This document shows positions 7,246 through 53,455 of a DNA stretch of 64,000 bases, piece after piece; within the stretch, counting starts at the first letter, position 1, and each line of letters begins with the position of its first letter. The position numbers and the translations under genes are program-made. The DNA lies in NCBI GenBank assembly GCA_036000965.1, contig DASYUT010000206.1, positions 1,193 to 65,192 on the forward strand. Reading direction: 5' to 3'. This DNA comes from Actinomycetes bacterium (GTDB lineage Bacteria > Actinomycetota > CALGFH01). The notes under the pieces were generated by a model. The model saw only the letters and a list, made by a program, of their open reading frames with translations. It had not been told where the DNA came from and searched no databases.

Positions 7246-7503
7246 GCAACCCGGTGATGCGGTGGATGGCTGACAACCTCGTGGTCCGCACCGACCCCGC
7301 CGGCAACATCAAGCTCGACCGCCAGCGCTCCACCGAAAGATCGACCTGGTAGACGTCCGCCAGTCGGTACAGTGCCCGGCCCCGATGGTCGCGCCCCTGA
7401 CAGGCGAGCAGCCCGCGGTGTGCCCACTGGCGGATGCGAGCTGGCTGGCTCCCGACCGCGACCCCCGCCGCGAGCGTGTCGACGAGCGCGGTGTCGCGCA
7501 CGA

Positions 7504-14841: not shown

Positions 14842-15819
14842 ATGCCGTCACGTCAGGGGCTCGCCCCGGTCACCGTCGTCCTCGGGGAGGAGGAGCTGCT
14901 GGCCGAGCGCGCGGTCGCCGACGCGGTGGGCGCCGCGGTCGGCGAGCTCGGGCCGGAGACCACGGTCGAGGAGGTGCGCGCCGGCGCCCTGCCCGACGGG
15001 TTCGCCATGGACCTGGCCACCGCGTCGCTGTTCGGCGGGGGCCGGGTGGTCGTGATCCACGACGCCGAGGCCCTGGACGCCACGGCGCGGTCGGCCGTGC
15101 TCGGCGCGGCCAGGGACCCGAGCCCGGGCACCGTGCTGGTGCTGCGGGCGGCCGGCGTCGGCCGCCAGGCCAAGTTCTTCAAGGAGGTGCAGCAGCACGC
15201 CGCCGTCAAGCTGGCCGACCGGCTCAAGCCGTCGGAGCGGACGAGCTGGCTGCGGTCGGAGGTGCGCCGGCTCGGCCGCCAGGCCGACCAGGCGGCGCTC
15301 GCCGCGCTCGTCGACACCGTCGGCCAGGACCTGCGCGAGCTGGCCGGTGCCGTGGCCAAGCTGCACGTGGCCGTCCCCCCGCCGGCCCCGCTGACCGCGG
15401 CGCACGTGGCCGAGTTCCTGAGCCAGACCGCCGACCGGGGCGTGTTCGAGCTGACCGACGCGGTCTTCGCCGGGGACGCCGCCACCGCCCTCGGGCACCT
15501 GGACTCCCTGCTGGGCCAGGGCGAGGACGCGCTCGGGCTGCTCGGGATGCTCGCCCGCCAGCTCCGCCTGCTGCTCAGGGTGGCCGACCACCCGGGCGCG
15601 CCCGCGAGCCAGGTCGCCCAGCTCCTCGGCCCCGGCACCCGGGACTGGCAGGTCGAGCGGGCCCGGCGCCAGGCCAGGAAGTTCCGGCCCGAGGACCTGC
15701 GCCGGGGCATGGACGTGATCGCCGAGGCCGACGCCGAGGTGCGCAACGGCAGCCTGCCGCCCCGCCTGCTCCTTGAGCTGGTGGTCACCCGCCTGGCCGC
15801 CGCCGGCGCCCGCCGCTAG
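14842..15819 (+). CDS. holA: DNA polymerase III subunit delta
   Basis: Conserved position after comEC; delta-subunit N-terminal pattern 'VTVVLGEEELLAERAV…'; ~325 aa. Confidence 0.85.
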   Translation: MPSRQGLAPVTVVLGEEELLAERAVADAVGAAVGELGPETTVEEVRAGALPDGFAMDLATASLFGGGRVVVIHDAEALDATARSAVLGAARDPSPGTVLVLRAAGVGRQAKFFKEVQQHAAVKLADRLKPSERTSWLRSEVRRLGRQADQAALAALVDTVGQDLRELAGAVAKLHVAVPPPAPLTAAHVAEFLSQTADRGVFELTDAVFAGDAATALGHLDSLLGQGEDALGLLGMLARQLRLLLRVADHPGAPASQVAQLLGPGTRDWQVERARRQARKFRPEDLRRGMDVIAEADAEVRNGSLPPRLLLELVVTRLAAAGARR

Positions 15820-15918
15820 GAGGCCGCCCGCCGCTAGGCGGCCACTGAACAACCATCCCGTCGCCTCCCTACGCGTCGAGGGCGGCCACCGGGCCGCCCT
15901 CGCGGGTCTCGCGGCGCG

Positions 15919-18235: not shown

Positions 18236-19541
18236 CACCACGACACCCGAGGTCGGCCCGATCCATCGGGGGGGCAGATGGCGCCTCCCCGAACCCTCCC
18301 TGGCTCCCGCTCCGGCATCGGCCCCCCGGGTTGGCGCCGGCCTCGACGAGCACGGTGCGAGCCTGCACCGGTCCGCAAGGCGGTCGCTTTTCGGTGTGTA
18401 CGTGCATGTGCCGTTCTGCCTGACCCGCTGCCACTACTGCGACTTCGTCACCTACACCGGCATGGAGGGGCTGCGCCGTCCCTACGCGGCCGCGCTGCTG
18501 GCCGAGGCCGAGCTGGCCACGGCCGCCCTGGGTCCGGAGACCGGACAGGTGGTCACCAGCGTGTTCGTGGGCGGGGGCACGCCCACCCTGCTGCCCCCGG
18601 GCGACCTCGCCCGGGTGCTCGACCGGCTCCGCGAACTGCTCGAGGTCGCGCCCGACGCCGAGGTCACCGTCGAGGCCAACCCGGAGACCGTCGACCGGGC
18701 GGTCGCCGACGGGCTGGCCGCGGCCGGGGTGACCCGGGTGTCGATGGGGGCCCAGAGCTTCGACGACCGCGTGCTCGACGCTCTGGGCCGGCCGCACGGG
18801 GCCGCCCAGACCGGCCGGGCGGTGGCGGCGCTGCGCGCGGCCGGAATCGAGGCGGTCAACCTCGACCTGATCTTCGGCTGCCCGCACGAGGACGAGGCCT
18901 CCTGGGCAGCCAGCCTGGCTGCCGCGGTCGGGCTCGGCCCGGAGCACCTGTCGGCCTACGCGCTCACCATCGAGCCGGCCACCAAGTTCGGCCGGCTGGT
19001 GGCCAGCGGCCGCATGGCCGGACCGGACGAGGACCTGCTGGCCGACCGCTACGAGACTACCTGCGCCACCCTGGCCGGGGCCGGCTACCGCCACTACGAG
19101 GTGTCCAACTGGGCCCGCGACGACCCCCGGCGCGCGGCCGGGCCCCTGCCCGCCCGGGCCAGCCGGCACAACCTCACCTACTGGCGGCGCGGCGCGTACC
19201 TCGGGCTCGGCGCCGGGGCGCACGAGTTCACCGGCGGGGTCCGGCGCTGGAACGTCCCTGGCGTGCCCGAGTACCTGGCCGCGGTCGCAGACGGCCGGCG
19301 CCCGACCGCCGGGCAGGAGCAGCTGTCGACCGCACAGGCCGCGTTCGAGCTGCTCGCCCTGCGGCTGCGCACCGCCGACGGCCTCGACCCGGCCGAGGCC
19401 CGCGAGCTCGGGGTGGACCCGGACGGGGCCGAGGTCGCCGAGCTGCGCGCCGCCGGCCTGCTCGCCAGCGGCCCCCGGGTCGCCCTCACCGAGCCCGGCA
19501 TGTTCCTGCATGGCGAGGTCGTGACCCGCCTCGCCAGCTGA
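18225..19541 (+). CDS. hemW: radical SAM family heme chaperone HemW (HemN-like); true start probably an internal GTG near ~18330
   Basis: '[16 protein letters not shown]' CxxxCxxC radical-SAM motif; conserved lepA-hemW linkage. Confidence 0.85.
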
Positions 19542-19861
19542 GCAGGACACCAGCAGCTCTGCCCGTAACCCGCCCGGGTGGAGGCGCCGCCGGTGGCCGC
19601 CCCGGTGGCTGAGCAGGACACCAGCAGCTCGGCGTCGACGACCGGACCGCCGCGGTCACCCGGGCGCTGGAGCGCGGCCTGCTGCCCATGCCCCGGCGCC
19701 AGCGGTAGCCCCGCGGCAGCGGCGGCCCCCGGCGGGTGTGGTGGCCCCCGGCGGGTGTGGTGGCCCCCGGCGGGGGCGGTGGCCCCCGGCGGGGGCGGTA
19801 GCCTTCGGCGGCGGCAGCAGCGGTAGCCCCAGGCGGCAGCGGTGGCCCAGGGTCGTCCTGG

Positions 19862-19888
19862 TCATCACTCCCCCAGGCAGAGTGCTAC
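19862..19888 (+). promoter_or_regulatory. degenerate CIRCE operator (HrcA binding site) 23 bp upstream of hrcA
   Basis: TCATCACTC-N9-GAGTGCTAC versus consensus TTAGCACTC-N9-GAGTGCTAA (7/9 and 8/9 matches, exact 9-nt spacer); overlaps the perfect palindrome GCAGAGTGCTACTCTGC. Confidence 0.6.
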
Positions 19889-19910
19889 TCTGCCGGTGGG
19901 AAGGACGGCC

Positions 19911-23711: not shown

Positions 23712-24566
23712 GTGCCGGAGGACGTGACGCCTGAAGCGCGAGAGTCCCGGATGGCTGAGGCGGGCGAGGCCCGTCCGCTGGTCCTGCTCGGCTGCTTCGC
23801 CCACCCCGACGACGAGACCTGGGCCCTCGGCGGTTCGTTCGCGCTGCTGGTGCCCAAGGGCGTGCGCTGCGCGGCGTGGACCGCGACCCGGGGCCAGGCC
23901 GGAGAGATCGCGGACGGCTCGGGCGCCACCCGCGAGACGCTGAGCCAGGTCAGGGAGGCCGAGGAGCGGGCGGCGATGACGGTGCTCGGCGTCACCGACG
24001 TCGAGTTCGGCGAGTTCATGGACGGGCAGGTGAGCGACGCCGACCCGGCCGAGCTGGTCGGGGCCGTGCAGCGCGCCCTCGAGCGGGTGCGGCCCGACGT
24101 GGTGGTGACCATGGAGCCGGGCGGGGTGACCGCGCACCCCGACCACGTGGCCGTGTCCGTCGCGGTCCTGGCCGCCTTCGCCGCCTACGCGCAGTCGCCC
24201 GGCGAGCGCGAGCCGCGCCTGTACTACTGGGGGGTGCCGGCGTCGCAGATGGCCCGGTTCCGCGAGGTGGCCGCCGAGCAGGGCGTCGAGCTCCCGGGCG
24301 AGGACGACCCGTTCGGGCCCCGCGGCACCCCAGACGAGCGCTTCACCTGCTGGGTGGACACCTCGCCAGTGGCCGAGCAGGTCTGGCGGGCGCTGGAGGA
24401 GCACCGCACCCAGGCCGACCCGTTCAGGGCGATGATGCGCGCAGGGGAGCTCTGGCGCGAGGTGTTCGCCGCCACCGCCTTCGTCCGTGTCCACCCGGTA
24501 GCCCGGCCCGGCGACCCCCACGAGACCTCGCTGGTCGACGCCTTCGGGGCGGGAGCGGGCCGGTGA
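23712..24566 (+). CDS. PIG-L/LmbE family deacetylase (start may be ATG at 23751)
   Basis: 'LGCFAHPDDE' zinc-binding motif characteristic of LmbE/MshB/PIG-L deacetylases. Confidence 0.7.
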   Translation: MPEDVTPEARESRMAEAGEARPLVLLGCFAHPDDETWALGGSFALLVPKGVRCAAWTATRGQAGEIADGSGATRETLSQVREAEERAAMTVLGVTDVEFGEFMDGQVSDADPAELVGAVQRALERVRPDVVVTMEPGGVTAHPDHVAVSVAVLAAFAAYAQSPGEREPRLYYWGVPASQMARFREVAAEQGVELPGEDDPFGPRGTPDERFTCWVDTSPVAEQVWRALEEHRTQADPFRAMMRAGELWREVFAATAFVRVHPVARPGDPHETSLVDAFGAGAGR

Positions 24567-25867
24567 CCGGGCGCGACCGGGCTCCCCTGGTCCCCGAGAC
24601 CGCGCCCGCGCCCAAGGTCGCCTTCAAGACCCTCGGCTGCCGGCTGAACCAGGCCGAGTCCGAGCGGGCCCTGGAGGCCCTCGGCGCCAAGGGGTTCGAC
24701 CTCGCCCACGCCGGTGAGGAGCCCGACGTGGTGGTCATCAACACCTGCACGGTGACCCGCGAGTCGACCGCGTCCTCGCGCCGGCTGATCCGCAAGACGG
24801 CCGAGGCCCACCCGGGAGCGACGGTCGTGGTGACCGGCTGCTACGCGGTCAGCGACCCCGAGGTCGTGAAGGCCATCCCAGGGGTCGACCTGGTGGTCGA
24901 CAACGAGGGCAAGGACCGTCTCGCCGACCTGGTCACCGCCGTGCCCAGGGTCCGCCGGCTGCCCCTCATGGTCCGCGAGGCGCCGGTCGAGCGGCTGCGG
25001 ACCCGGGTGGCGATCAAGGCCCAGACCGGCTGCGACGAGTGGTGCACGTTCTGCATCATCCCCCGCACCAGGGGGCCGCTGAAGTCCTACCCGGAGGACG
25101 AGATCGTCGCCGACGTGCGCCGCCAGGTCGCCCGGGGCGTCCGGGAGGTCGTGCTCACCGGGGTCCACCTCGGCAAGTACGGCGAGGACCGGGGCGAGCG
25201 GGAGGGGCTGGCCCGGCTCGTCGACCGCCTCACCGCGATCGAGGGGCTCGTCCGCCTGCGCCTGTCCAGCGTGCTGCCCGTGCAGGTCACCCCGGCCCTG
25301 GTCGGGCGGGTCCGCGACGACCCCAAGGTCTGCCGCCACCTGCACGTGCCGCTGCAGGCCGGCGACGACGAGGTGCTCGAGCGGATGCACCGCCCCTACC
25401 GGGTGGCCGAGTTCCTCGACCGGGTCGAGCACGCCAAGGCGGAGATCCCCGGGCTCGGCCTGTCCACCGACGTGATCGTCGGCTTCCCGGGCGAGACCCG
25501 GGAGCAGTTCGCGGCCACCCTGCGGGTCACCGAGCGGGTCGGCTTCTCCAAGCTGCACGTGTTCCGCTACTCCCAGCGGCCCGACACGCCGGCCGCCACC
25601 ATGCCCGAGCAGGTGCCCGAGGGCGAGAAGAAGGCGCGCGCCCGCGAGCTGATCGCCCTCGGCAACGAGCTGCGCCGCCGCTTCCACGAGGCGCATGTCG
25701 GGCGGTCGCTCTCGGTGCTGGTGGAGACGGCCGGCGACGGCCTGGCCGAGGGGACCAGCGACAACTACATCAAGGTCCGCTTCCCGGGTGGCCCCGACCT
25801 GGTCGACCGGGTCGTCACCGTGCGCGGCGCCCGGGCCGACAACGAAGGCATGGAGGCGACGCCATGA
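24563..25867 (+). CDS. radical SAM methylthiotransferase, MiaB/MtaB-like tRNA-modifying enzyme (GTG start overlapping the upstream stop)
   Basis: MTTase N-domain 'KVAFKTLGCRLNQAESE', radical SAM 'CDEWCTFCIIP', C-terminal TRAM-like region. Confidence 0.8.
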   Translation: MTGRDRAPLVPETAPAPKVAFKTLGCRLNQAESERALEALGAKGFDLAHAGEEPDVVVINTCTVTRESTASSRRLIRKTAEAHPGATVVVTGCYAVSDPEVVKAIPGVDLVVDNEGKDRLADLVTAVPRVRRLPLMVREAPVERLRTRVAIKAQTGCDEWCTFCIIPRTRGPLKSYPEDEIVADVRRQVARGVREVVLTGVHLGKYGEDRGEREGLARLVDRLTAIEGLVRLRLSSVLPVQVTPALVGRVRDDPKVCRHLHVPLQAGDDEVLERMHRPYRVAEFLDRVEHAKAEIPGLGLSTDVIVGFPGETREQFAATLRVTERVGFSKLHVFRYSQRPDTPAATMPEQVPEGEKKARARELIALGNELRRRFHEAHVGRSLSVLVETAGDGLAEGTSDNYIKVRFPGGPDLVDRVVTVRGARADNEGMEATP

Positions 25868-25913: not shown

Positions 25914-26258
25914 GTGAGCGGCGACGACTTGTTCTGCAGGATCGCCCGCAAGGAGATCCCGGCCGACGTCGTGCTCGAGACCGACGACGTGCTGGCCTTC
26001 CGGGACGTCAACCCGCAGGCGCCCAGCCACGTGCTGGTGATCCCCAAGGAGCACCTGGCCAGCCTCGAGGAGGTCGCCGAGGGTCACGGCGGGCTGCTCG
26101 CCGCCCTGGTCGGCGCGGTCAACGAGGTGGCCAGGAAGGAGGGCGTGGCCGGCGGGTTCCGGGTCGTGACCAACATCGGGCGGACCGCCGGCCAGTCGGT
26201 CGACCATCTCCACCTCCACGTGCTCGGCGGCCGCAACATGGGCTGGCCGCCAGGATGA
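25914..26258 (+). CDS. histidine triad (HIT) nucleotide-binding protein
   Basis: 'DHLHLHVLGG' HxHxHxx motif; 'LFCRIARKEIPA'. Confidence 0.85.
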   Translation: MSGDDLFCRIARKEIPADVVLETDDVLAFRDVNPQAPSHVLVIPKEHLASLEEVAEGHGGLLAALVGAVNEVARKEGVAGGFRVVTNIGRTAGQSVDHLHLHVLGGRNMGWPPG

Positions 26259-28342
26259 GCCGGCACGGCTCCCCGGGCCCGCACGGCTCCCCCGGCCCGC
26301 ACGGCTCGTGGAAGTCCCCGATCTCGGGCGACCTGCTCGCCGGGGGCGGCATCTCCCTCGACGCGCTGCAGCCGGACGGGGAGGCGCTGTTGTGGATCGA
26401 GGGCCGGCCGCTGGAAGGCGGCCGGAACGTGGTCTGCCGGGCCGAGCCCGGCGCCGACCCGGTCGACCTCACCCCGCCCGGGGACGAGTTCGACGTGCGC
26501 ACCCGGGTCAACGAGTACGGCGGCGGCGCCTACGCCGTCCACGCCGGCACCCTGTTCTTCTCCAACTACGCCGACCAGCGGCTGTGGCGCCAGGACCCGG
26601 GCGAGCCGCCCCAGCCGATCACGCCGGAGCCCGACCGGCCGGCCGCGCTGCGCTACGCCGACGCCCGGGTCACCCCCGACGGCGCGCTGCTGGTCTGTGT
26701 CCGGGAGTCCCACCACGAGGCCGGGCGGGTCGTCAACGAGCTGGTCGCCGTGCCTGCCGACGGGTCCGGGGCGCCCTGGGTGCTGGCCGGCGGGCGTGAC
26801 TTCTACGCGTCCCCGCGCCTCTCCCCGGACGCGAGCCGGCTCGCCTGGCTCGAATGGGACCACCCGCGCATGCCCTGGGACGGGACCGAGCTGAAGGTGG
26901 CGGACTTCTCGGGCGGCGTGGTGGTCGGCGAGCCGAGGCTCGTCGCCGGCGGCCCTTCCGAGTCGATCTTCCAGCCCGAGTGGAGCCCGGGCGGCGCCCT
27001 GCACTTCGTGAGCGACCGCACCGGCTGGTGGAACCTGTACCGGGAGCGGGACCCCTCGCGCTCCTCAGGCGATGAGGCCGCCGGCGGCGAGCACGGGCCC
27101 TCGCGCGCCTCAGGCGAGCACGGGGCCTCGCGCGCCTCAGGCGATCTGGCCTCGCGCGCCTCGGGCGAGTCTGTCGAGGCCCTGGCCCCGATGGAGGCGG
27201 AGTTCGGGGCGCCCCAGTGGGTGTTCGGCCTGGCCACCTACGCGTTCCTGCCCGGCGGCCGGATCGCCTGCCTGTACGGGCGCGGCCCGGTCCAGCACCT
27301 CGGTCTGCTCGAGCCCGGGTCGGACCGCCCCACCCCGGTCGACCTCCCCTTCACCTGCTTCTACCCGCCGCAGCTGCTGGCACTCGGCGACCGCGTGGCC
27401 TGCATCGCGGGCAGCTCGACGCTGTCCCCCGCGGTGGTGGTGGTCGACCCTGCGACCGGGGAGGTCGAGACCCTGCGCCGGGCCCGCGACCTCGACCTGG
27501 ACCCCGGCTACCTGTCGGTCGCGCGCCTGGTCGAGTTCCCGACCGAGGGCGGTCGCACCGCCCACGCCCTGTACTACCCGCCCGCCAACCCCGACGCCCG
27601 GGGTCCCGACGGCGAGCGGCCGCCGCTGGTGGTAATGAGCCACGGCGGCCCCACCGCGGGCGTGGTCGGCCTGCTCAAGCTCGGCGTCCAGTTCTTCACC
27701 AGCCGCGGCGTCGCCGTGGTCGACGTCGACTACGGCGGCAGCAGCGGGTACGGCCGGGCCTACCGGGAGCGCCTGAAGGGCCGGTGGGGCGTGGTCGACG
27801 TCGACGACTGCGTCAACGCCGCCCGCCACCTGGTCGAGGCCGGCGAGGTCGACGGCGCGCGGCTGGCGATCACCGGGGGGAGCGCCGGCGGCTACACCGC
27901 CCTCTGCGCGCTCGCCTTCCGCGACGCGTTCGCCGCCGGCTCGAGCTGGTTCGGCGTCGCCGACCTGGAGACGTTCGCCAGCGACACCCACAACTTCGAG
28001 TCGCGCTACCTCGACCAGCTCGTGGGCCCGTGGCCCGAGTGGGCCGACCTCTACCACGAGCGCTCCCCGGCCCACTTCGCCGGCCGGATCGACTGCCCGG
28101 TCCTGCTCATCCAGGGTCTCGAGGACGAGGTCGTGCCGCCCTCCCAGGCCGAGGCGATGGTCCGGGCGCTGGCCGCGCGCGGCATCCCCCACGCCTACCT
28201 GACCTTCGAGGGCGAGCAGCACGGTTTCCGCAAGGCCGAGAACATCAAGCGCGCGTTCGAGGCGGAACTGTGGTTCTACGGCCGCGTCTTCGGGTTCGAG
28301 CCGGCCGACCCGATCGAGCCGGTGCCGATCCAGCACCTGTGA
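26255..28342 (+). CDS. S9 family peptidase (prolyl oligopeptidase / acylaminoacyl-peptidase type: beta-propeller + alpha/beta-hydrolase)
   Basis: Nucleophile elbow 'GGSAGGYTA', C-terminal 'GLEDEVVPPSQAE…EGEQHGF' catalytic Asp/His region; ATGA start/stop overlap with the HIT gene. Confidence 0.85.
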   Translation: MSRHGSPGPHGSPGPHGSWKSPISGDLLAGGGISLDALQPDGEALLWIEGRPLEGGRNVVCRAEPGADPVDLTPPGDEFDVRTRVNEYGGGAYAVHAGTLFFSNYADQRLWRQDPGEPPQPITPEPDRPAALRYADARVTPDGALLVCVRESHHEAGRVVNELVAVPADGSGAPWVLAGGRDFYASPRLSPDASRLAWLEWDHPRMPWDGTELKVADFSGGVVVGEPRLVAGGPSESIFQPEWSPGGALHFVSDRTGWWNLYRERDPSRSSGDEAAGGEHGPSRASGEHGASRASGDLASRASGESVEALAPMEAEFGAPQWVFGLATYAFLPGGRIACLYGRGPVQHLGLLEPGSDRPTPVDLPFTCFYPPQLLALGDRVACIAGSSTLSPAVVVVDPATGEVETLRRARDLDLDPGYLSVARLVEFPTEGGRTAHALYYPPANPDARGPDGERPPLVVMSHGGPTAGVVGLLKLGVQFFTSRGVAVVDVDYGGSSGYGRAYRERLKGRWGVVDVDDCVNAARHLVEAGEVDGARLAITGGSAGGYTALCALAFRDAFAAGSSWFGVADLETFASDTHNFESRYLDQLVGPWPEWADLYHERSPAHFAGRIDCPVLLIQGLEDEVVPPSQAEAMVRALAARGIPHAYLTFEGEQHGFRKAENIKRAFEAELWFYGRVFGFEPADPIEPVPIQHL

Positions 28343-28485
28343 CCCCCGGCGCCCGGCACCTGTGACCCCGCCCAGCACCCGTCACCCCCGCCCAGCACCT
28401 GCGACCCCGCCCAGCACCTGCGACCCCGCCCGGCACCTGCGACCCCGCCCAGCACCTGCGACCCCACCCAGCACCTGCGACCCCG
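28331..28485. repeat. ~19-bp tandem repeat ×8 (CAGCACCTGYGACCCCGCC) that begins with, and reiterates, the last codons plus stop of the S9 peptidase gene
   Basis: Eight consecutive near-identical units beginning at the CAGCACCTGTGA stop region. Confidence 0.9.
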
Positions 28486-28580
28486 GCGCCGCCGCCCGGT
28501 GAACTACAGATATACTCGCAAAACGTCGATCGAAGGACCGGCGCCATTCGCGTCCCCTACAGGAGGGGCTACCAGCAAGC

Positions 28581-30623
28581 GTGCAGCAACAGACGCAGGT
28601 CAAGGTACTGGTCCCAGGCAACCATCCCATGGTCAGCCTCCTCGGCACCCGGGACGAGCTGCTCAAGCTGATCGAGGCGGGGTTCGAGAGCACGGTGTTC
28701 GTCCGCGGCAACGAGATCACGATCACCGGGGAGCAGGCCGACGCCGAGCGGGTCGCCCGCCTGTTCGAGGAGATGATCAACCTCCTCGAACAAGGCAACG
28801 CCCTCACCGCCGAGACCGTCGGCCGGTCCATCGACATGCTCCGGGGCGACGAGGCGGTGCGGCCCTCGGACGTGTTCGGCGACGCCGTGCTCACCGTGCG
28901 GGGCCGCTCGATCAAGCCCAAGACGGTCGGGCAGAAGAAGTACGTCGACGCCATCCGCCGCAACACGGTCGTGTTCGGCATCGGCCCGGCCGGCACCGGC
29001 AAGACCTACCTGGCCATGGCCGTGGCCGTCCAGGCCCTGCTCACCAAGCAGGTCAACCGCCTGATCCTGACCCGGCCGGCGGTCGAGGCGGGCGAGAAGC
29101 TGGGCTTTCTGCCCGGGACCCTGTCGGAGAAGATCGACCCGTACCTGCGGCCCCTCTACGATGCCCTGTACGAGATGGTCGACGCCGAGCAGATCGGACG
29201 GCTGATGGAGCGGGGCACCATCGAGGTCGCCCCCCTCGGCTACATGCGGGGCCGCGCGCAGCCGTACGACAGCCAGGTCCTGACACCGTGGGGATTCCGT
29301 CCCATCGGAAGTCTCGAGGTCGGGGACCTCGTGATCGGATCGAACGGCCTCCCCACGCCGGTGCTCGGCGTGTACCCGCAGGGCCGCAAGGAGGTCTTCC
29401 GCATCCAGACGCAGGACGGTGCGTCGACGCTCTGCTGCGGCGAGCACCTCTGGTCGGTCACGACGCCCGAAGATCGGAGACGCGGGCGGCCCCATCGGGT
29501 CATCGAAACGCGGGAGATGATCGGCCGCCTCAGGAGGGCGCACGCTCACCGATTCGAGCTGCCGCGGGTCTCGCACGCAGTCGAGTTCGAGTCCCGGAAC
29601 GTCCCGATGGACCCCTACGCGCTCGGGCTCCTCCTAGGCGACGGATGCCTGACGACGTCGACGACGCCTTCGTTCGCGACCATCGATTCGGAGCTGGCCC
29701 TCGCCCTGGAGCTGGCCCTCGACGGCATCGAGCTGCGCCGGAAGGGGGAGGTCGACTACGTGCTCCGCCACACGGCCGGACACCGCGGGGGAGTGATCGT
29801 CTCGAATCCCGTGACGGTCGTGCTTCGGGGCCTCGGCCCTGCCGGCACGCGTTCGAACACGAAGTTCGTCCCGGAGCTCTACCTGTACAACTCCTCCGAG
29901 GTTCGCCTGGCCGTGCTCCAGGGCCTGCTGGACACCGACGGAGGACCCGTGACCCAGCGCGGACGAACCTGCCGCATCCAGTACGGGACGTCCTCGGAGC
30001 GATTGCGGGACGATGTCGTGTTCCTCGTGCGGTCCCTGGGAGGCGTCGCGTACCGGAGGACCCGCGACGCCGCCGGGCGTCCTCCCGGACGCGCCCGGGG
30101 GCGGGACGTTCACCACCGCTCGGATGTGTTCGTCCTCGATATCCGTCTGCCCGAGGGCATCGAGCCCTTCCGGCTGACTCGGAAGCGGGAGGTCTACCGG
30201 GTGTCCGGAGGCGGCCGTCCAATGCGCTTCATCCACAGCATCGAGCCCGCAGGCGAGGAGGAGACGCTCTGCATCCGGGTCGCGGCGGCCGATTCGCTGT
30301 ACGTGACGGACGACTTCCTGGTCACCCACAACACCCTCAACGACTCCTTCATCGTCCTCGACGAGGCCCAGAACACCACCCCGGAGCAGATGAAGATGTT
30401 CCTGACCCGGCTCGGGTTCAACTCCAAGGCCGTCGTCACCGGCGACATCACCCAGATCGACCTGCCGTCCGGCCAGCACTCGGGCCTGAACGTGGTACGC
30501 GAGATCCTCACCGGGATCGACGGCCTCGCCTTCATGTACCTGTCGAGCCGGGACGTGGTCCGCCACCGGATCGTGCAGGACATCGTGGAGGCCTACCGCC
30601 GCTCTGACGAGGCGAGGGCGTAG
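28581..30623 (+). CDS. phoH: PhoH-family ATPase interrupted in-frame by a 359-aa intein (precursor 680 aa; spliced product 321 aa)
   Basis: Walker A '[13 protein letters not shown]'; conserved '[10 protein letters not shown]' is separated from the Walker-B continuation '[16 protein letters not shown]' by a 359-aa insertion; the rest of PhoH is collinear; conserved phoH-ybeY-corC operon. Confidence 0.9.
29256..30332 (+). mobile_element. intein (Hint domain + LAGLIDADG homing endonuclease) with class-3 WCT-type features, inserted between R225 and T of PhoH
   Basis: Block A '[26 protein letters not shown]' (Ala1); block B 'TLCCGEHLW' (His B10, Trp B12); LAGLIDADG blocks '[12 protein letters not shown]' and '[13 protein letters not shown]'; block F '[17 protein letters not shown]' (Cys at F4); block G 'FLVTHN' followed by +1 Thr. 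Confidence 0.8.
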
Positions 30624-31266: not shown

Positions 31267-32570
31267 AGGCGCCCTCCACCGGCGACGTCTGGATCCTGGT
31301 GGCCATCGTGGTCCTCACCGGGGTCGCCGCGTTCCTGGCCGCGGCCGAGACCAGCCTCACCCGGATGGGCCGCATCCGGGCCATGCACCTGGCCGAGGAG
31401 CACCAGCGCGGGGCCGCCCAGCTCCTCCGGCTCGTGGAGGACCCGCCCCGCTTCCTCAACCTGGTGCTGCTGCTGGTGCTGGTGGTCCAGTTCTTCGCGA
31501 CCGCGCTGGCCACCTCGGTGGCCGAGCGGCTGATCGGCGGCGGCACCGGGGTGGCGGTCGCGGCCACGGCCATGACCGTGCTCACGTTCATCTTCGCCGA
31601 GGTGGCGCCCAAGACGTTCGCGGTCCAGCACACCGACCGGGTCGCCCTCGGCGTGGCGCCGTTCGTGTACCTGCTGGTGCGGCTGCCGATCCTGGGGCCG
31701 CTGACCCGGCTGCTCATCGGGATCGGCAACGTGGTCACTCCCGGCAAGGGCCTCAGGACGGGCCCGTTCCTGTCCGAGGACGAGCTGCGCGCGATGGTCG
31801 ACGAGGCCGAGAAGGAGGAGGTCATCGAGCAGGAGGAGCGCGAGATGATCCACTCCATCTTCGAGTTCGGGGACACCATCCTGCGCGAGGTGATGGTGCC
31901 CAGGCCCGACATGGTCACGGTCAGCGTCGGGCGGTCGCTGCAGGAGGTGCTCGAGGTCATCCTGCGCTCCGGGTACTCGCGCATCCCCGTGCACCAGGGC
32001 GACATCGACGACATCGTCGGGCTCGCCTACGCCAAGGACGTGCTCCGCAGCCTCCACGACGGCCAGGTCGACAAGCCGCTGGCCGACATCCTGCGCCCGG
32101 CCCCGTTCATGCCGGAGTCGATGAAGGCGGCCGACTGCCTGCGCGAGATGCGCAGGCGCAAGAGCCACATGGTGATCGTGATCGACGAGTACGGCGGCAC
32201 CTCGGGCCTGGTCACCATCGAGGACCTGCTGGAGGAGATCGTCGGTGAGATCACCGACGAGTACGACCGCGAGGAGCCCAACGTCGAGCCCCTCCCCGAC
32301 GGCGACTACCGGGTCAACGCCCGGCTCGGCATCGACGAGGTCAACGAGCTGCTCGACGTGGAGCTACCCTCGACCGAGTGGGACTCGATCGGCGGCCTGG
32401 TGTTCAACCTGGTCGGCGACGTGCCCAAGGAGGGCCAGGAGGTCGAGTTCATGGGCCTCCGCCTGCGGGCCGAGCGGGTCCAGGGCCGCCGCCTGGGGCG
32501 GATCCGCATCCACCGCCTGGACGAGGCCGAGCTGGGCCAGGACGCCCCGGCCGAGGCCCGCCCACAGTGA
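31263..32570 (+). CDS. hemolysin/CorC family membrane protein (CNNM/DUF21 + CBS pair + CorC_HlyC)
   Basis: N-terminal TM domain 'ILVAIVVLTGVAAFLAAAETSL', CBS pair, C-terminal transporter-associated domain; third gene of the phoH-ybeY-corC unit. Confidence 0.85.
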   Translation: MKAPSTGDVWILVAIVVLTGVAAFLAAAETSLTRMGRIRAMHLAEEHQRGAAQLLRLVEDPPRFLNLVLLLVLVVQFFATALATSVAERLIGGGTGVAVAATAMTVLTFIFAEVAPKTFAVQHTDRVALGVAPFVYLLVRLPILGPLTRLLIGIGNVVTPGKGLRTGPFLSEDELRAMVDEAEKEEVIEQEEREMIHSIFEFGDTILREVMVPRPDMVTVSVGRSLQEVLEVILRSGYSRIPVHQGDIDDIVGLAYAKDVLRSLHDGQVDKPLADILRPAPFMPESMKAADCLREMRRRKSHMVIVIDEYGGTSGLVTIEDLLEEIVGEITDEYDREEPNVEPLPDGDYRVNARLGIDEVNELLDVELPSTEWDSIGGLVFNLVGDVPKEGQEVEFMGLRLRAERVQGRRLGRIRIHRLDEAELGQDAPAEARPQ

Positions 32571-32666
32571 TGCGGGCGGGCGCACCAGGAGCCGTGCGTG
32601 GAACGGGGGGGCGCCGGTGATGCGGGCGGGCGCACCAGGAGCCGTGCGCGGAACAAGGGGGTGCCG
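32567..32666. repeat. 50-bp tandem duplication ×2 covering the corC stop codon and the region immediately upstream of the cdd start
   Basis: GTGATGCGGGCGGGCGCACCAGGAGCCGTGCGYGGAACRRGGGGGKGCCG repeated twice; a third partial unit supplies the cdd GTG. Confidence 0.9.
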
Positions 32667-33167
32667 GTGACGAACCTGCCGGTGGGGGAGCTGGTCGCCG
32701 CCGCCCGCGCCGCCCGCGAGCGCGCCTACGCGCCCTACTCGCGGTTCCGGGTGGGCGCGGCCCTGCTCACCGACGGCGGGGACGTGGTGACCGCAGCCAA
32801 CGTGGAGAACGCCTCCTACGGCCTGAGCATCTGCGCCGAGCGGGCGGCCGTGGTGGCCGCCGTGGCCGCCGGCTACCGCAGCTTCGAGGCGATCGCGGTG
32901 GCCGGCGGCGGGGAGGCCCCGGTCACCCCGTGCGGGGCGTGCCGGCAGGTCCTGCGCGAGTTCCCGGCCGCCCTCGACCTCGAGGTCGTGTGCGCCGGCG
33001 AGGCCGGGGACCGGGTGCTCGCCACCACCCTCGGGGCCCTGCTGCCCGAGAGCTTCGGGCCTGACGCGCTTCAGGCGGAGCAGCCCGACGCGCCCGGCCG
33101 GCCGCTCGGCCTGAAGCGCGCCAGGCCCTCCCGCCCGAAGCGCGCACGGCCCGGGGAGCGGTCGTGA
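32661..33167 (+). CDS. cdd: cytidine deaminase (GTG start at 32661 or 32667)
   Basis: 'CAERAAV' and 'PCGACRQVL' zinc-binding CDA motifs. Confidence 0.8.
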
Positions 33168-34057: not shown

Positions 34058-34092
34058 CCGCCCTGGGAGGTGGCGGGTCAGAAGTCGGCGGG

Positions 34093-35325
34093 TCAGAAGT
34101 CGGTGGAGCACCAGGGGGCGAGGTCACTGGTGAACATCGCGTCGGCGCGGGCCAGCGCGCCCGGCCGGCCCTCGCGGGCGCGGCCGGCCCGGCCCAGGGT
34201 GGAGAAGCGGACCCCGCCGAGGTAGGCGGCGCCCAGCGCGGCCACGTCGAGCACCACGTCCGGCTCGAAGCCCGTCCGCGCGCAGTCGGCACCCGAAGGT
34301 CCGCCGTCGACCCGGAAGCGGCCGTCGTTCTCGGGCAGCAGCGGGTCGGCGACCTCGAGCACGAGCTGCCCGCTGGCGGCGTAGCGCCGGGCGGCCAGGG
34401 CGGCCGGCACGTCCAGGACGCGCAGCCACAGGAAGTCGGAGAGCAGCGTGGTGCGCAGGCGGCGCGGGTCGGCCAGGCACCAGCGCAGCGGCTCGTCCAG
34501 CGGCCGGTTGTGCAGCTCGACGGTGGTGGTCAGGTCGAGGTCGAGGCAGAACCGCCACAGCGACGCGGCCGCCTCCGGGGTGACCGCCATCAGCTCGTGG
34601 ACCTGGGCCACGTTGTCGGGCAGGTTGTCGGTCCAGCGCGGCTTCAGGCTGTAGGTGGCGTAGCCGTCGACCTGGCCGGGAGCCGGCTCGTAGGCCACGT
34701 TGACGCGGGGGCCGCCGCCGTCGCGGATCCACTCGGGGTCGCGCAGGCGCAGGTCCCACCACGCCGGGGTGCGGCTGACCTGGCCGGGATGGACGCGGCG
34801 GACGCGGTCGAACAGCTCCGGCAGCATCCGGGCCGCCTCGTCGCCGGCGACCAGGCGCACCCGCCCGCCGGTTGGCACCGACCCGGCGAACGCGGCGTGC
34901 CTGCGGTCGATCTCCAGGTCGGCCGCCGAGCTGGCCAAGCCGTACCCGAACCGGCCGTAGAGCAGCGACTCCGACGCGGTCAGGATCGACACCGGCTCGC
35001 CCCGGGCCTGCACGTCCTCGAAGTGGCGCTGCATGAGCGCGCGCAGGATGCCCCGGCGCCGGTGGGTAGGCAGCACCGAGACCAGCGTCAGCCCGCCGGC
35101 GGGCATGCCGACGCCGCCCGGCACGGTCAGCTCGAAGGAGTAGGCGCCGGCGGTGGCGACCATCCCCTCCTGGGCGTCGAAGGCGCACAGGCTGCGCTCG
35201 GTCTCGAAGACCTTGGGGAACTCGGCGAGGGCCTCGCCGGGCCAGCGGCGACCGAAGACCGTGCCGAACACGCGCGCGAGCTCGGGCAGCTCCTCGACCG
35301 CGATCGGCCGGATCTCGACATCCAT
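34093..35325 (-). CDS. Eis-like GNAT family N-acetyltransferase (GNAT + SCP2-like C-terminal domain)
   Basis: 'VLPTHRRRGILRALMQRH' acetyl-CoA binding motif; ~410 aa three-domain Eis-type organisation. Confidence 0.7.
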   Translation of the reverse strand: MDVEIRPIAVEELPELARVFGTVFGRRWPGEALAEFPKVFETERSLCAFDAQEGMVATAGAYSFELTVPGGVGMPAGGLTLVSVLPTHRRRGILRALMQRHFEDVQARGEPVSILTASESLLYGRFGYGLASSAADLEIDRRHAAFAGSVPTGGRVRLVAGDEAARMLPELFDRVRRVHPGQVSRTPAWWDLRLRDPEWIRDGGGPRVNVAYEPAPGQVDGYATYSLKPRWTDNLPDNVAQVHELMAVTPEAAASLWRFCLDLDLTTTVELHNRPLDEPLRWCLADPRRLRTTLLSDFLWLRVLDVPAALAARRYAASGQLVLEVADPLLPENDGRFRVDGGPSGADCARTGFEPDVVLDVAALGAAYLGGVRFSTLGRAGRAREGRPGALARADAMFTSDLAPWCSTDF

Positions 35326-35592
35326 GGGCCTTGTTGTACCCGCCGCCGCCCGCGCGCGCACGCGGTTTTCCCACGCCGGTCACGGGACTGGGAGGGTCAG
35401 GTGCCCGTGGCCTGCTCGCCCGTGGCCTGCTCGCCTCCGGGCGCAGCCAGGCCTGATTGTCGCAGACGATCGCCGCGCCACTTCGCTGTCAGCGGAGCGG
35501 AAGGCGCCAGGGCCGAGCCCTCAGTAGGCTTGCCGCCCGGACGACCGAGCAGGCTTGCCGCCGGGACGGCCGACGACGAAAAGGAGCCCGGG

Positions 35593-36624
35593 ATGCGAGT
35601 GATGGTGCTGGGGGGGACGCGGTTCATCGGGGCCGCGATCGTCGAGGAGCTCGACGGGCACGGGCACGAGCTACTCATCGTGCACCGGGGGGAGCACGAG
35701 CCCGACGACCTGCCCGCCGCCGAACACCTGCACGCCGACCGGCGTGACCTGCCCCACCTGCGGGGTGCGGTCCAGGAGTTCGGGCCGGAGGCGCTGGTCG
35801 ACACCTGCGCGCTCACCGCCACCGACGCCGAGACGGCGCTCGCCACCCTCGGCGACGACGTCCGCCTGCTGGTCCTGTCCAGCGTGGACGTCTACCGGGC
35901 GTTCGGGTCGGTGCTGACCGGGGTGGAGACCGACCCGCTCCCGCTGGACGAGACCTCACCGGTGCGCGCCGAACGCTTCCCCTACCGGGGTCGCATGGAG
36001 CGGGGCGACGACTACGAGAAGCTCGAGGTCGAGGAGCCCTACCTGGCCAGGGCGGCCACCGTCTGCCGGCTCCCGATGGTGTACGGCGAGCGCGACTACC
36101 AGCGACGCGAGGAGGCGATCCTGAGCCGGGTGCGGGCCGGGCGCTCCCGCATCCCCATCGGGACAGGCAGCTGGCTGTGGACCCGCGGCTACGTCCGCGA
36201 CATCGCCACCGGGGTCCGCCTCGCACTCGAGTCGGACGCTGCCTTGGCCGAGGTGCTCAACCTGGGGGAGAGCCGGAGCTGGTCGATGGGCCTGTGGGCC
36301 AGGCACGTCCTGGAGGCGGCCGGTGCCCAGGCCGAGCTGGTCCGGGTGCCCGACGTGCTCCTCCCCGACGACCTCGAAGAGTTCGGCACTATCCAGCAAC
36401 ACCTACTCGTGAGTTCCGCCAAGGCGCGGGATCTCCTCGGCTGGGAAGAGACGGACCCCCATGAGGCGCTGACTCGCTCGGTCGCCTGGCACCTGGCCAA
36501 CCCGCCCGGGGACGCCGACCGTGACTTCGAGGCCGACGACCGGGCGCTGGCCGCGACCGACGACCGGGCGCTGGCCGCGGCCGACGAGTACCTGGCGTCG
36601 CAGCAACCGGCTAGCCACGCCTGA
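35593..36624 (+). CDS. NAD-dependent epimerase/dehydratase family (extended SDR) protein; contains an in-frame 24-bp ×2 duplication near the 3' end (36531-36578)
   Basis: 'MRVMVLGGTRFIGAAIVEEL' Rossmann GxxGxxG; RBS AAAAGGAGCC; the 869-aa ORF in the track is a read-through artefact. Confidence 0.8.
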   Translation: MRVMVLGGTRFIGAAIVEELDGHGHELLIVHRGEHEPDDLPAAEHLHADRRDLPHLRGAVQEFGPEALVDTCALTATDAETALATLGDDVRLLVLSSVDVYRAFGSVLTGVETDPLPLDETSPVRAERFPYRGRMERGDDYEKLEVEEPYLARAATVCRLPMVYGERDYQRREEAILSRVRAGRSRIPIGTGSWLWTRGYVRDIATGVRLALESDAALAEVLNLGESRSWSMGLWARHVLEAAGAQAELVRVPDVLLPDDLEEFGTIQQHLLVSSAKARDLLGWEETDPHEALTRSVAWHLANPPGDADRDFEADDRALAATDDRALAAADEYLASQQPASHA

Positions 36625-38215
36625 ACGGGTAAACAGGATCTCCAACACCGCGGATTGGGACACTGTCGATGACGCAGGGGTGGAAGACATAGCTGTCCGC
36701 ACCGATGGGAATATCGAACTGGTCCATGTCGGCGTGAGAGTAGAAATGGGCTTCGCCGCCTGCCTCAACATAGCCGAGGAGCCCGTTCTGCCAGAGGACG
36801 GAGGGGAAGCTGGTGGTGCTGTCGAACTTCTCGTCGGCGCGCATGCTCATCAGTTCCAGCTCTTCCCTTGAGAAGCGGTCACGGCCGACTTCCCTGATGA
36901 TGCCGCGAACCTGGTGGTCGATTCCAGCCAGATACTCCATGGTGCTGGTGTAGATCTCGGAGTACCCGTGACGCGCGGCGTCCTTCGGCATGGTGTCTGC
37001 GGCGATCTGGTTGCTGGTCTGGGCGAGCTGCGAATCCCCGAACCGCTTGGACGAGCGGGAGACGACGCGTCGCAGGTCCGGCTGGGAGAACTCCGTGCGG
37101 CCAGCTGCCCTCTGCCGCAGGATCGCGGCGCAGATCGCATTGCCCAGGGAAACGATGTCTCTCGGGATGAGCCGCGTGTGCCGAAGAAGGTAGTCGCCGG
37201 CCCTCTCGTGCACTCCGCGGGCCTCGTTCTTCACGACAGGGGTTCCAAGCCAGGCTTCAACTGGGTTCGCATAGGTCCCTGCGGCCATGAGGAAGGACTG
37301 GTCGAGCCTGCGCAGCTTCTCGAGCAGCAGGTATTCGATCGACTCTCTATCCCAGCTGAGGACGCGAATATGCGGCTCATCGTGGTATCGCGGTGCATGC
37401 TCGGAGCGGTAGACAGACGACATCACGATGTCCCGGACGGAGATCACGATGTGCAGGCGCCCGCCGAGCCTCGGGTCCCTCAGGAAGCGCATCACCTGAT
37501 AGAACAGGCCCTTCTGGCACCGCAGCCAGTACATCGGCGCATGGCTGAACTCTTCGTCCACCGCGTCAAGGTAGAAGAAAATCGGCGGACACGTCCGGAG
37601 GATCTCCGCGAGGACGTCTTCGAGGTCGTCCCACGCGGGGTCGTCCAGGTAGTCCGTCAGCTGGCGGGCCTTGTTCTGCCCATTGATGATCGTGCGCATC
37701 TCCGCGTAGATGGATCTCGGCCTCCGGAACTCACCCAGCAGGTGTCCGTATTCTCCCCTCAGCGTTCCCGCCTGCTCGTGTGAAAGGTAGGGCTTGAGGT
37801 CCTCGTGGGCGAGAAGATGGGTCGCCAGAGAGCTCAGTACCGCACGGTTCCACACCTGCATCCACTTCTCGGTGAGGAATCGTTCTGGAAACCATTGGCA
37901 AGCCTTGACGACAGCTTCTGTCGATGGGAGGTTCTGCTGGGGATGGCCGGCGTAGACGGATCCCTGGTGTGCCTGGAAGCTGCGCAGACGCCGCAGGTAG
38001 ACGGTCTTCCCGGCACCAAGCCGTCCAACGATCACGCGAGTTGTGGCGTCGTCAGCCGGTGCCGCGAGAGCTCCAAAAGCAGGATTGCCCCGGAAGTCGA
38101 CGAAATCGCTCAGAATGTTTGCGATGGGCGCCCTGGAGCCATCTGGATTTCCAAATGGGCCTGTTGGGTCTGAGAACCCTTCCACTATCAGGTTGCCGTC
38201 CAGCTGGGCGTGCAT
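36611..38215 (-). CDS. P-loop NTPase of unknown function (534 aa), low-GC islet gene 2
   Basis: Walker A 'VIVGRLGAGKTVYL', Walker-B-like 'IFFYLDAVDEEF', possible sensor 'LHIVISVRD'; GC content ~57% against ~70% background; stop overlaps the epimerase stop convergently. Confidence 0.75.
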   Translation of the reverse strand: MHAQLDGNLIVEGFSDPTGPFGNPDGSRAPIANILSDFVDFRGNPAFGALAAPADDATTRVIVGRLGAGKTVYLRRLRSFQAHQGSVYAGHPQQNLPSTEAVVKACQWFPERFLTEKWMQVWNRAVLSSLATHLLAHEDLKPYLSHEQAGTLRGEYGHLLGEFRRPRSIYAEMRTIINGQNKARQLTDYLDDPAWDDLEDVLAEILRTCPPIFFYLDAVDEEFSHAPMYWLRCQKGLFYQVMRFLRDPRLGGRLHIVISVRDIVMSSVYRSEHAPRYHDEPHIRVLSWDRESIEYLLLEKLRRLDQSFLMAAGTYANPVEAWLGTPVVKNEARGVHERAGDYLLRHTRLIPRDIVSLGNAICAAILRQRAAGRTEFSQPDLRRVVSRSSKRFGDSQLAQTSNQIAADTMPKDAARHGYSEIYTSTMEYLAGIDHQVRGIIREVGRDRFSREELELMSMRADEKFDSTTSFPSVLWQNGLLGYVEAGGEAHFYSHADMDQFDIPIGADSYVFHPCVIDSVPIRGVGDPVYPFRRG

Positions 38216-38249
38216 CCGACCTCCATCACTCGCTCGTCGGTGGCTCGCA

Positions 38250-52012: not shown

Positions 52013-53390
52013 GCGGCGGCGGTCCTGGCCTGCCCGGACCGGGACGGTGCGGGTGCGCACGACCGTGGCCGCCGTGATGGTCGTCGGGGTGGCCATGGCC
52101 GTGGGTGGGGTGCTGATGGTGACGGTGCTGCGGGACGCGCTCACCCGCCAGGTGGCGGCCGCGGCCCGGCTGCGGGCCATGGACGTGGCAGCGGTGCTCG
52201 CGTCGGGGGCCGAGCCACAGAAGCTCGCGGTCGACGACGACGAGGACCTGATGATCCAGGTGCTGGACCGGGACGGCAGGGTGGTCATGTCGAGCCCCAA
52301 CGTCAAGGGGCTGCCTGCGGTGGCCCGGCTGCGCCCTGGGGAGTCGGCCCCGGTCGAGGTGCCGATCGACAACGACGACGAGTTCCTGGCCGTGGCCACC
52401 GCCGCCGACACCGGCGACGGCCGCTTCACCGTCGTGGTGGCCCGCAACGTCGAGACGGTGGCCCAGTCGGCCCGGATCGTCACCGGCATGCTGGCGGTCG
52501 GGCTGCCGCTGCTGCTGCTGCTGGTCGGTGTGACCACGTGGAGGGTGGTGGGCCGGGCGCTGGCGCCGGTCGAGGCGATCCGCGGCGAGGTCGACGCGAT
52601 CTCCGCCGCCGAGCTGCACCGCCGGGTCCCCGACCCGCCGGGCGACGACGAGATCGCCCGGCTGGCCAAGACGATGAACCGGATGCTCGACCGGCTCGAG
52701 CGCGCCCAGGTCCGCCAGCGGCGCTTCGTGTCCGACGCCTCCCACGAGCTGCGCTCACCGGTCGCCTCCATCCGCCAGCACGCCGAGGTCGCCCTGGCCC
52801 ACCCCGACCGCACCACCACCGTCGAGCTGGCCGAGACGGTGCTGGCCGAGGACCTCCGGGTGCAGCGGCTGGTGGAGGACCTGCTGCTGCTGGCCCGAGC
52901 CGACGAGCACACCCTGGGGCTGCGCCGACGCCTCGTCGACCTGGACGACCTGGTGTTCAACGAGGCCCGCCGGCTGCGGGACGCCAACGGGGTGCGGGTC
53001 GACACCACCGCGGTGTCGGCCGGCCGGGTCGACGGAGACGCCGGCGGGCTGCGCCGGGTGCTCCGCAACCTCGGCGACAACGCCGCCCGCCACGCCCGCG
53101 GCCGCATCTCGTTCGCGCTCGCCGAGCGCGACAGCGTGGTGGTGCTGGCGGTGGACGACGACGGGCCGGGGGTCCCCGAGGCCGACCGCGAGCGGGTCCT
53201 CGAGCGCTTCGTCCGCCTCGATGACGCCCGGGCCCGCGACGCCGGTGGCAGCGGGCTCGGCCTGGCCATCGTGGCCGAGCTGGTCGCCGCCCACGGCGGC
53301 ACGCTCGCCGTCGCCGGCAGCCCTCTGGGTGGCGCCCGGATCGAGGTCACCCTCCCACGTGGCGGCAACGGCGCCGCGCCGGGCAAGTGA
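52005..53390 (+). CDS. sensor histidine kinase (TM, HAMP, HisKA, HATPase_c)
   Basis: H-box 'FVSDASHELRSPV', N-box 'LRNLGDNAARHA', G-boxes 'DDGPGV' and 'GSGLGLAIV'; overlaps the response-regulator stop. Confidence 0.9.
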   Translation: MAERRRSWPARTGTVRVRTTVAAVMVVGVAMAVGGVLMVTVLRDALTRQVAAAARLRAMDVAAVLASGAEPQKLAVDDDEDLMIQVLDRDGRVVMSSPNVKGLPAVARLRPGESAPVEVPIDNDDEFLAVATAADTGDGRFTVVVARNVETVAQSARIVTGMLAVGLPLLLLLVGVTTWRVVGRALAPVEAIRGEVDAISAAELHRRVPDPPGDDEIARLAKTMNRMLDRLERAQVRQRRFVSDASHELRSPVASIRQHAEVALAHPDRTTTVELAETVLAEDLRVQRLVEDLLLLARADEHTLGLRRRLVDLDDLVFNEARRLRDANGVRVDTTAVSAGRVDGDAGGLRRVLRNLGDNAARHARGRISFALAERDSVVVLAVDDDGPGVPEADRERVLERFVRLDDARARDAGGSGLGLAIVAELVAAHGGTLAVAGSPLGGARIEVTLPRGGNGAAPGK

Positions 53391-53455
53391 ACCGGGTCAC
53401 CCTCCCACGTGGTGGCAACGGCGCCGCGCCGGGCAAGTGAACCGGGTCACACTCG
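53345..53455. repeat. 51-bp tandem duplication (×2 plus a partial third) of the 3' end and stop codon of the histidine kinase gene
   Basis: GGTCACCCTCCCACGTGGYGGCAACGGCGCCGCGCCGGGCAAGTGAACCG repeated. Confidence 0.9.

Follow-up and report, generated by a model that had tools for sequence, protein, structure and literature searches.

Tandem repeats at the gene ends of a soil actinobacterium as probable products of position-independent duplication

Why is the end of a bacterial gene, stop codon included, repeated head-to-tail behind that gene? The question is raised by a stretch of 64,000 nucleotides on contig DASYUT010000206.1 (GenBank assembly GCA_036000965.1, Actinomycetes bacterium; positions 1,193 to 65,192, hereafter the window), in which the last codons of a gene for an S9 peptidase recur in an array of eight 19-bp units. 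The initial annotation had counted four or five such cases at gene 3′ termini and suggested a process acting throughout the genome, with replication slippage, template switching at transcription or replication termini, or a recombination hot-spot motif as candidates. Comparison of the window with related loci (identified by L numbers) indicates that the arrays are most probably locus-specific variable-number tandem repeats (VNTRs) that arise by microhomology-mediated duplication independent of position and are then filtered by selection; frame-breaking duplications, we conclude, are found at gene ends because they do no harm there, and not because a process creates them at such sites.

The array behind the S9 peptidase gene

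The array and its setting comprise the following features, in window coordinates.

26255..28342, plus strand: gene for an S9 (prolyl-oligopeptidase family) peptidase, with its C-terminus PVPIQHL and stop at the ancestral position
27086..27169, plus strand: in-frame 27-bp array of 3.2 copies within the S9 gene, in the window one unit longer than in L081 and L162
28331..28485, plus strand: array of eight 19-bp units; unit 1 is formed by the last four codons and TGA of the S9 gene, units 2 to 8 lie downstream, and copy number varies between strains
28581..30623, plus strand: phoH, downstream of the S9 gene; its GTG start and a leader containing TATACT (28511-28516) are kept in relatives

Read from the sequence, the units start at 28331, 28354, 28373, 28393, 28412, 28431, 28450 and 28469, with successive periods of 23, 19, 20, 19, 19, 19 and 19 bp. 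The first unit, CCAGCACCTGTGACCCC, carries the final codons and TGA of the open reading frame (ORF) 26255-28342; TGTGA is kept in units 1 and 2 only, and later units read TGCGA or CGTCA. Tandem Repeats Finder (TRF) reports a period of 19 bp, 7.1 copies and a score of 214, and the eightfold 19-bp repetition with its TGA is present in the sequence as first described. The 3′ end of the array stops about 25 bp short of the TATACT-containing leader motif of phoH.

The peptidase C-terminus, PVPI(Q/E/A)HL followed by the stop, is kept in about 30 relatives, which places the S9 stop codon at its ancestral position. Three of the related loci (L083, L085 and L095) at 82-90% identity, the first two at 88-90%, have a single copy at the S9 end; the conserved GATATACTCGC leader follows about 25-50 bp past this copy, and then the conserved GTG start of phoH. 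Given the single copy in these relatives, the array is read as a lineage-specific amplification of the last codons, the stop and about 5 nt; the slack zone that separates the S9 stop from the phoH leader holds 4-10 copies of this segment. L085 has the heptamer CCTGTGA at two places at the S9 end, 24 bp apart, and this spacing fits the 23-bp first period of the window array. The units of this array, of the second 19-bp array between hemW and hrcA, and of a duplication at the end of a histidine-kinase gene match their own loci only, in a search of the window and about 2 Mb of other loci, and on this ground an origin of the three from dispersed repeats was ruled out.

The initial annotation had proposed a comparison of copy number among strains, and this comparison was informative: in assemblies at least 99% identical to each other the S9 array has four units (L081), eight (window) and ten (L082), numbers that derive from short-read metagenome assemblies liable to collapse or break repeats, and the order of unit variants differs among the three. 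Variation of this kind could point to assembly artefacts, as short-read assemblers mishandle repeats, copy numbers differ by assembly, and two contigs (L165 and L166) end within the second copy of the histidine-kinase duplication, in the way that short-read assemblies break at repeats. Yet the same arrays, with the same flanks and with distinct orders of unit variants, recur in assemblies made independently from at least four samples (ENA ERZ27257227; JGI 3300028878, 3300036861 and 3300050230), and differences of 15 bp and 27 bp lie far below read length; an artefactual origin of the arrays is extremely improbable.

Two further observations concern the neighboring phoH gene. Its leader (28505-28580, GATATACTCGCAAAACGTCG…AGGAGGGGC) is kept in relatives down to about 70% identity, has no match in Rfam, and could be a promoter plus a 5′ untranslated region (UTR) element. 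The PhoH protein has about twice the usual length; a LAGLIDADG_3 insert (intein or homing-endonuclease-like) splits the PhoH domain, and the same architecture is found in the near-identical contig L081.

Repeat load, reading frame and microhomology

Arrays were called with TRF at a score of at least 50, and overlapping calls were merged. The window holds 32 such arrays, against an expectation of 1.8 (Markov shuffle) to 3.4 (triplet shuffle), or about 10-fold over chance; 13 arrays score at least 80 where about 0.1 are expected, and the top score in 60 shuffles was 113. Per 10 kb, the window has 2.0 strong arrays (score at least 80), clade relatives have 0.58, and unrelated loci with a guanine-plus-cytosine (GC) content of 65-70% have 0.15-0.2. 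With this excess, and with clade and strain data in agreement, the early suggestion of a genome-wide process is supported. In a survey of prokaryotic satellites, whose criteria differ from those used here, few bacteria exceeded 4 per Mb (PMC6749651). Although the lineage is rich in repeats, its arrays are of a well-known type.

The periods of the arrays depend on where they lie. Inside genes, 13 of 15 window arrays have a period divisible by three, and the two exceptions are weak and degenerate; outside genes or at their boundaries, the period is not divisible by three in 10 of 17. The same bias is seen clade-wide (the window and about 700 kb of relatives), with in-frame periods in 118 of 136 arrays inside genes and in 25 of 47 outside.

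Among sequences that are 99.3-99.9% identical, every small insertion or deletion of at least 15 bp is a change in repeat copies: 27 bp in an in-frame array, 15 bp in another array, about 4 x 19 bp, 2 x 19 bp, and a gain of two units. The only other length differences are a deletion of 77 bp and one of 780 bp, both of the microhomology type, the latter with 4-bp microhomology. The former is found in one strain (JGI Ga0307278_10000563), where 77 bp are missing across the PIG-L stop and the MiaB-like start (window 24511-24587; L082 ~3286; L163 9497-11536); the two genes are thereby fused in frame, and the product is called as one protein of 679 amino acids. The latter is found in an ENA contig (L081 ~14634) without the 780 bp of window 35373-36151; the epimerase gene has thereby lost its promoter and its 5′ half.

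At the boundaries of 12 clean two-copy arrays, microhomology extends over 3.25 nt on average, where the null gives 0.94 nt; it reaches at least 3 nt in seven of the 12, against 9.6% expected. At three loci a single-copy ancestral state with bounding direct repeats is represented among relatives: the histidine-kinase end (GGTC-type repeats), the corC/cdd junction (ATGACG, L167) and the S9 end (CCTGTGA, L085). Replication slippage, one of the mechanisms proposed at the outset, fits these direct repeats in single-copy relatives as well as the boundary microhomology and the repeat-copy changes between strains.

Frame bias, changes of repeat copies between strains, microhomology and arrays private to individual lineages together are what tandem duplication through microhomology, with subsequent slippage between copies and purifying selection, leaves behind. 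An array would be founded when replication slippage, or repair mediated by microhomology, takes place between short direct repeats rich in GC and duplicates the 10-60 bp enclosed by them; once two copies are present, slipped-strand mispairing between the copies could lengthen or shorten the array. Purifying selection would then discard products that break genes, so that inside genes almost only in-frame periods remain, and frame-breaking periods would persist only outside genes or where the duplicated segment includes the stop codon. A duplication that contains the stop is tolerated, since its first copy leaves the encoded protein whole; where a genome is compact and its spacers are short, a gene end will therefore be part of many tolerated duplications. 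Two points of this scheme are inferred from the patterns: the enzymology, be it slippage or end-joining, and that the arrays are neutral.

Published work on microhomology-mediated tandem duplications describes the same bias in reading frame and reports that long GC-rich microhomology pairs are about 1000-fold more prone to duplication (PMC8639346). The arrays described here resemble these duplications in the short direct repeats at their bounds, the frame-preserving survivors within genes, the favoring of GC-rich microhomology, and the copy changes between close relatives; they differ in that the published duplications were seen mainly as subclonal events in yeasts and are reported to be rarer in Escherichia coli, whereas those in the window are fixed or segregating between strains and have grown into multi-copy arrays (PMC8639346).

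Gene ends and the corC/cdd junction

Beyond the S9 locus, arrays and repeats at or near gene ends are as follows.

15807..15843, plus strand: 18-bp duplication (2.1 copies) across the TAG stop of holA (15817-15819)
19538..19632, plus strand: 23-bp direct repeat, GCTGAGCAGGACACCAGCAGCTC, at 19538 and 19610; the hemW stop lies in the first copy, and the period of 72 bp gives about 1.3 copies
19691..19848, plus strand: second 19-bp array, about eight units, between hemW and hrcA and a short way upstream of a CIRCE-like operator
32567..32670, plus strand: two 50-bp units after the corC stop and ahead of the cdd start (GTG at 32667); each reads as a mini-ORF of 17 codons that overlaps its neighbors by GTGA at either end
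34072..34103, minus strand: 15-bp duplication (2.1 copies) across the stop of the Eis-like acetyltransferase gene (TCA, 34093-34095); single copy in L081
36533..36587, plus strand: in-frame 24-bp array (2.3 copies) near the C-terminus of the epimerase (gene 35594-36624), stop not included
53345..53454, plus strand: 50-bp duplication (2.2 copies) of the histidine-kinase 3′ end, with 43 coding nt, TGA and 4 nt per unit and a GGTCAC direct repeat at the bounds

Three of these, the duplications at the holA (18 bp, two copies) and Eis-like (15 bp, two copies) stops and the eight-unit 19-bp hemW-hrcA array, had been missed by the initial annotation. The Eis-like duplication, absent in L081, may be a recent gain; the hemW-hrcA array is two units longer in the window and in L164 than in L162 and L163. 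Directly 3′ of the latter array and upstream of hrcA stands the CIRCE-like inverted repeat TCATCACTC-N9-GAGTGCTAC (19864-19890).

The histidine-kinase end is a true duplication that includes TGA, as had been recognized, with a measured period of 50 bp in place of the 51 bp first given. In a relative at 91% identity (L167/L168) the 3′ end of the gene is in single copy, and two short direct repeats already stand at the bounds of the segment, one in the coding sequence and one just past the stop; the bounding repeat is GGTCAC in the window, and its post-stop partner in the 91% relative reads GGTCGC. Past the residues LPR, the tails of the histidine kinases vary among relatives and are of similar length. 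The 24-bp repeat in the epimerase gene exists as reported (2.3 copies), but it lies in frame within the gene and leaves out the stop, and hence it is not a case of a duplicated terminus.

The corC/cdd junction calls for a separate account. In about 40 relatives the corC stop and the cdd start overlap by 4 bp (GTGA or ATGA), which is the ancestral arrangement. L167, 96.5% identical across cdd-era, has one 50-bp unit with ATGACG on both flanks; in the window there are two, and in L085 (92%) likewise two, identical to each other but much diverged from those of the window. The tandem repetition noted originally (50 bp, two copies; 2.1 by measurement) is confirmed; its description as a duplicated corC terminus is not, since the unit lies downstream of the stop and the corC 3′ end shares only GTGA with it. 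As a source of the unit, the corC 3′ end and the cdd 5′ end were compared by eye and dismissed for want of convincing similarity. In all three lineages (two copies in the window, one in L167, two in L085) the unit forms a 17-codon mini-ORF with (G/A)TGA overlaps at both ends; judged from this architecture, the relay of mini-ORFs plausibly preserves translational coupling. As a side observation, the C-terminal tail of cdd in L167 (~500-680) is extended by about seven in-frame 24-nt repeats, of which the window has about one copy; relatives carry private arrays.

Mycobacterial interspersed repetitive units (MIRUs) have been described with such a layout, as junction mini-ORFs that overlap the start and stop of their neighbors (PMC12548453). 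The corC/cdd unit might then be a mobile, MIRU-like element that was inserted at the cdd start codon and duplicated later, instead of a product of local duplication. This would agree with a unit that does not derive from the flanking genes, that sits in an operon junction in the orientation of the genes, and whose 17-codon ORF, with 4-nt overlaps to both neighboring ORFs, is kept in three lineages at one or two copies; the published MIRU architecture resembles it (PMC12548453). On the other hand, an open frame of 17 codons is likely to occur by chance at 72% GC (by our own estimate, in about three of four cases), a period of 2 modulo 3 has a prior of one in three, and a search of the window and about 2 Mb of other loci turned up no further copy of the unit, a weak counterargument as it covered only 64 kb of this genome. 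The likeness, which is limited to corC/cdd, extends to the unit size of about 50 bp, the operon junction, the gene orientation, the short ORF, the 4-nt overlaps and the one or two tandem copies; dispersal, as of MIRUs, is not seen for this unit, the host is not a mycobacterium, and the resemblance drawn here is one of layout. A MIRU-like origin is, on balance, rather doubtful.

Are the duplications aimed at stop codons? Under a placement null that lets a founding duplication of equal period fall anywhere not wholly inside a gene, five stop-spanning arrays in the window stand against 1.2 expected (P~0.004), and one start-spanning array against 1.2. The window, picked for this very pattern, makes this excess a post hoc one, and unannotated stretches were counted as free space. 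In the same analysis of about 700 kb of unselected relatives, three stop-spanning arrays were observed where 3.8 were expected, and four start-spanning arrays where 3.7 were expected; the enrichment of tandem repeats at stop codons that the initial annotation anticipated is thus missing in relatives, and pooled counts (7 vs. 5.0 expected; P=0.22) give no significant excess. A process targeted at gene 3′ termini, whether template switching at the termini of transcription or replication or a recombination hot-spot, would account for the five stop-spanning arrays of the window and for the direct repeat at the hemW end. It would not account for the arrays inside or upstream of genes, which make up about half of the total, nor for the in-gene, in-frame arrays that vary between strains just as the S9 post-stop and hemW-hrcA arrays do. 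A hot-spot motif was rejected as well: the units have in common only widespread GC-rich hexamers that occur 150-350 times each in the window. Targeting of this kind is very unlikely.

Position-independent duplication with selective filtering remains the preferred account, and the observations that weigh against it are these, in addition to the short-read origin of the copy numbers and the broken histidine-kinase contigs. The stop excess in the window runs counter to it, and the duplications may have a modest but real bias toward sequence immediately after stop codons; mild extra tolerance just past stops, as compared with promoter regions, is a plausible reason for the window excess. The placement test uses an approximate gene map with approximate start codons, the starts of the automatic caller being off by about 100 nt, and it was repeated with the starts of the longest ORFs. 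The 23-bp repeat at the hemW end, which the initial annotation took for a smaller tandem case, is not one: its two perfect copies stand 72 bp (24 codons, in the same frame) apart with unrelated sequence between them, and simple duplication does not account for it. Nor does the founding 50-bp unit at corC/cdd resemble the corC 3′ end or the cdd 5′ end.

Possible functions, setting and significance

The initial annotation had suggested that the arrays might modulate 3′-UTR structure, termination or translational coupling. The RNA of the S9 array is unstructured (folding z=+0.70), neither a terminator-like site in 28200-28700 nor a sigma-70-like promoter around the array was found, and no Rfam family reaches its gathering score anywhere in the window; a structured 3′-UTR element or an intrinsic terminator was rejected on these grounds. 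The array contains the most C-over-G-skewed 100 nt of the window (60 C, 19 G), and with C at 0.57 and G at 0.22 it offers at least 80 nt of C-rich, G-poor, unstructured sequence past a stop, as the sequence criterion of a Rho utilization (rut) site has it. By its sequence the array would thus have the composition expected of a Rho-loading site. It is C-rich because the amplified unit itself is C-rich, and selection is not needed to explain this.

The arrays could be retained for function, with the unstructured, C-rich, 155-nt S9 array as a putative Rho-loading (rut-like) site or as a tunable spacer that insulates phoH, and with the hrcA-proximal array as a modulator of the promoter and CIRCE context, in a copy-number-dependent (phase-variable) form of regulation. 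The skew and lack of structure of the S9 array would suit this proposal, and both 19-bp arrays, each variable in copy number, lie directly upstream of conserved, regulatory sequence that belongs to the following gene. Against it stand the C-rich array that follows from a C-rich unit without selection, the G-rich composition of the second 19-bp array on the same strand (G 0.48, C 0.38), which leaves the two without a common theme, and the relatives at 88-90% identity that manage without the S9 array; the proposal carries little probability. Both arrays occupy slack between the stop of one gene and the conserved leader or operator of the next, a placement that fits neutrality. Similarly small is the chance that an unusually high intrinsic rate of microhomology-mediated duplication in this Nitriliruptoria-like lineage has been combined with co-option of some products, for example the S9 array as a copy-number-tunable Rho-loading insulator before phoH, or the 50-bp relay mini-ORFs as MIRU-like modules that couple corC and cdd.

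Bacterial VNTR or minisatellite loci, such as the ETR and QUB loci of Mycobacterium tuberculosis, are used in multiple-locus VNTR analysis typing. The arrays described here share with them the locus-specific head-to-tail units (9-57 bp), the variation of copy number in near-identical strains, and the confinement to in-frame periods within genes with any period between genes. They differ in their host, an uncultured soil actinobacterium with about 10-fold the strong-array density of the other high-GC genomes sampled, and in that several of them demonstrably begin within the last codons of a gene. With the simple-sequence contingency loci of phase variation they share fast, slippage-driven change of copy number; in contrast to the 1-8 bp units of those loci, units here measure 15-57 bp, and the arrays at gene ends leave the protein unchanged and form no on/off switch.

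The window has a GC content of about 72% and a conserved, actinobacterial row of genes: comEA-comEC, holA, lepA, hemW, hrcA-dnaJ, rsmE, a BldD-like gene, PIG-L, a MiaB-like gene, HIT, the S9 peptidase gene, phoH, ybeY, corC, cdd, era, the Eis-like acetyltransferase gene and the epimerase gene, with a two-component system and uppS further along. Homologs of the histidine kinase at 75-77% identity come from metagenome-assembled genomes of Egibacteraceae (class Nitriliruptoria, phylum Actinomycetota) or Actinomycetes, and the closest relatives are all from soil metagenomes; homologs of the S9 peptidase at 49-56% identity come from many phyla, among the matches listed in the contig scan. No identical protein was found for the S9 peptidase or for either of two start variants of the response regulator. 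A block with lower GC content at third codon positions (36611-39700) contains an ORF on the minus strand (36611-38215) that matches the Sll1717-family P-loop ATPases (82.9 bits, cutoff 75), and two ORFs without matches; this block is probably an inserted island, as the syntenic region of L167, a relative at 96% identity, lacks it. Another minus-strand ORF (5645-7645) matches the Mutator (IS256-type) transposase family. A palindromic unit of about 44 nt (…GGCCGGGGAACCCCAAGGGGGTGCCCCGGTGGA) is repeated three times in tandem in L148 (15829-15965) and absent from the window; it occurs singly, at varied positions and in varied orientations, in seven other loci (L089, L090, L091, L102, L104, L126 and L143), and looks like a dispersed element of the repetitive extragenic palindrome type or the miniature inverted-repeat transposable element type.

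The striking pattern of repeats at gene ends can be explained without a new mechanism, as duplications are harmless there. At the corC/cdd junction, the relay mini-ORF illustrates, cleanly and in a natural setting, how translational coupling can survive when an overlapping stop/start junction receives an insertion. The arrays call for caution in short-read assembly, where contigs break or collapse at them, and are usable as strain markers (VNTR loci) for this uncultured soil lineage; its repeat load, about 10-fold in strong arrays over the other high-GC genomes sampled, would make it a natural system for the study of microhomology-mediated duplication in bacteria.

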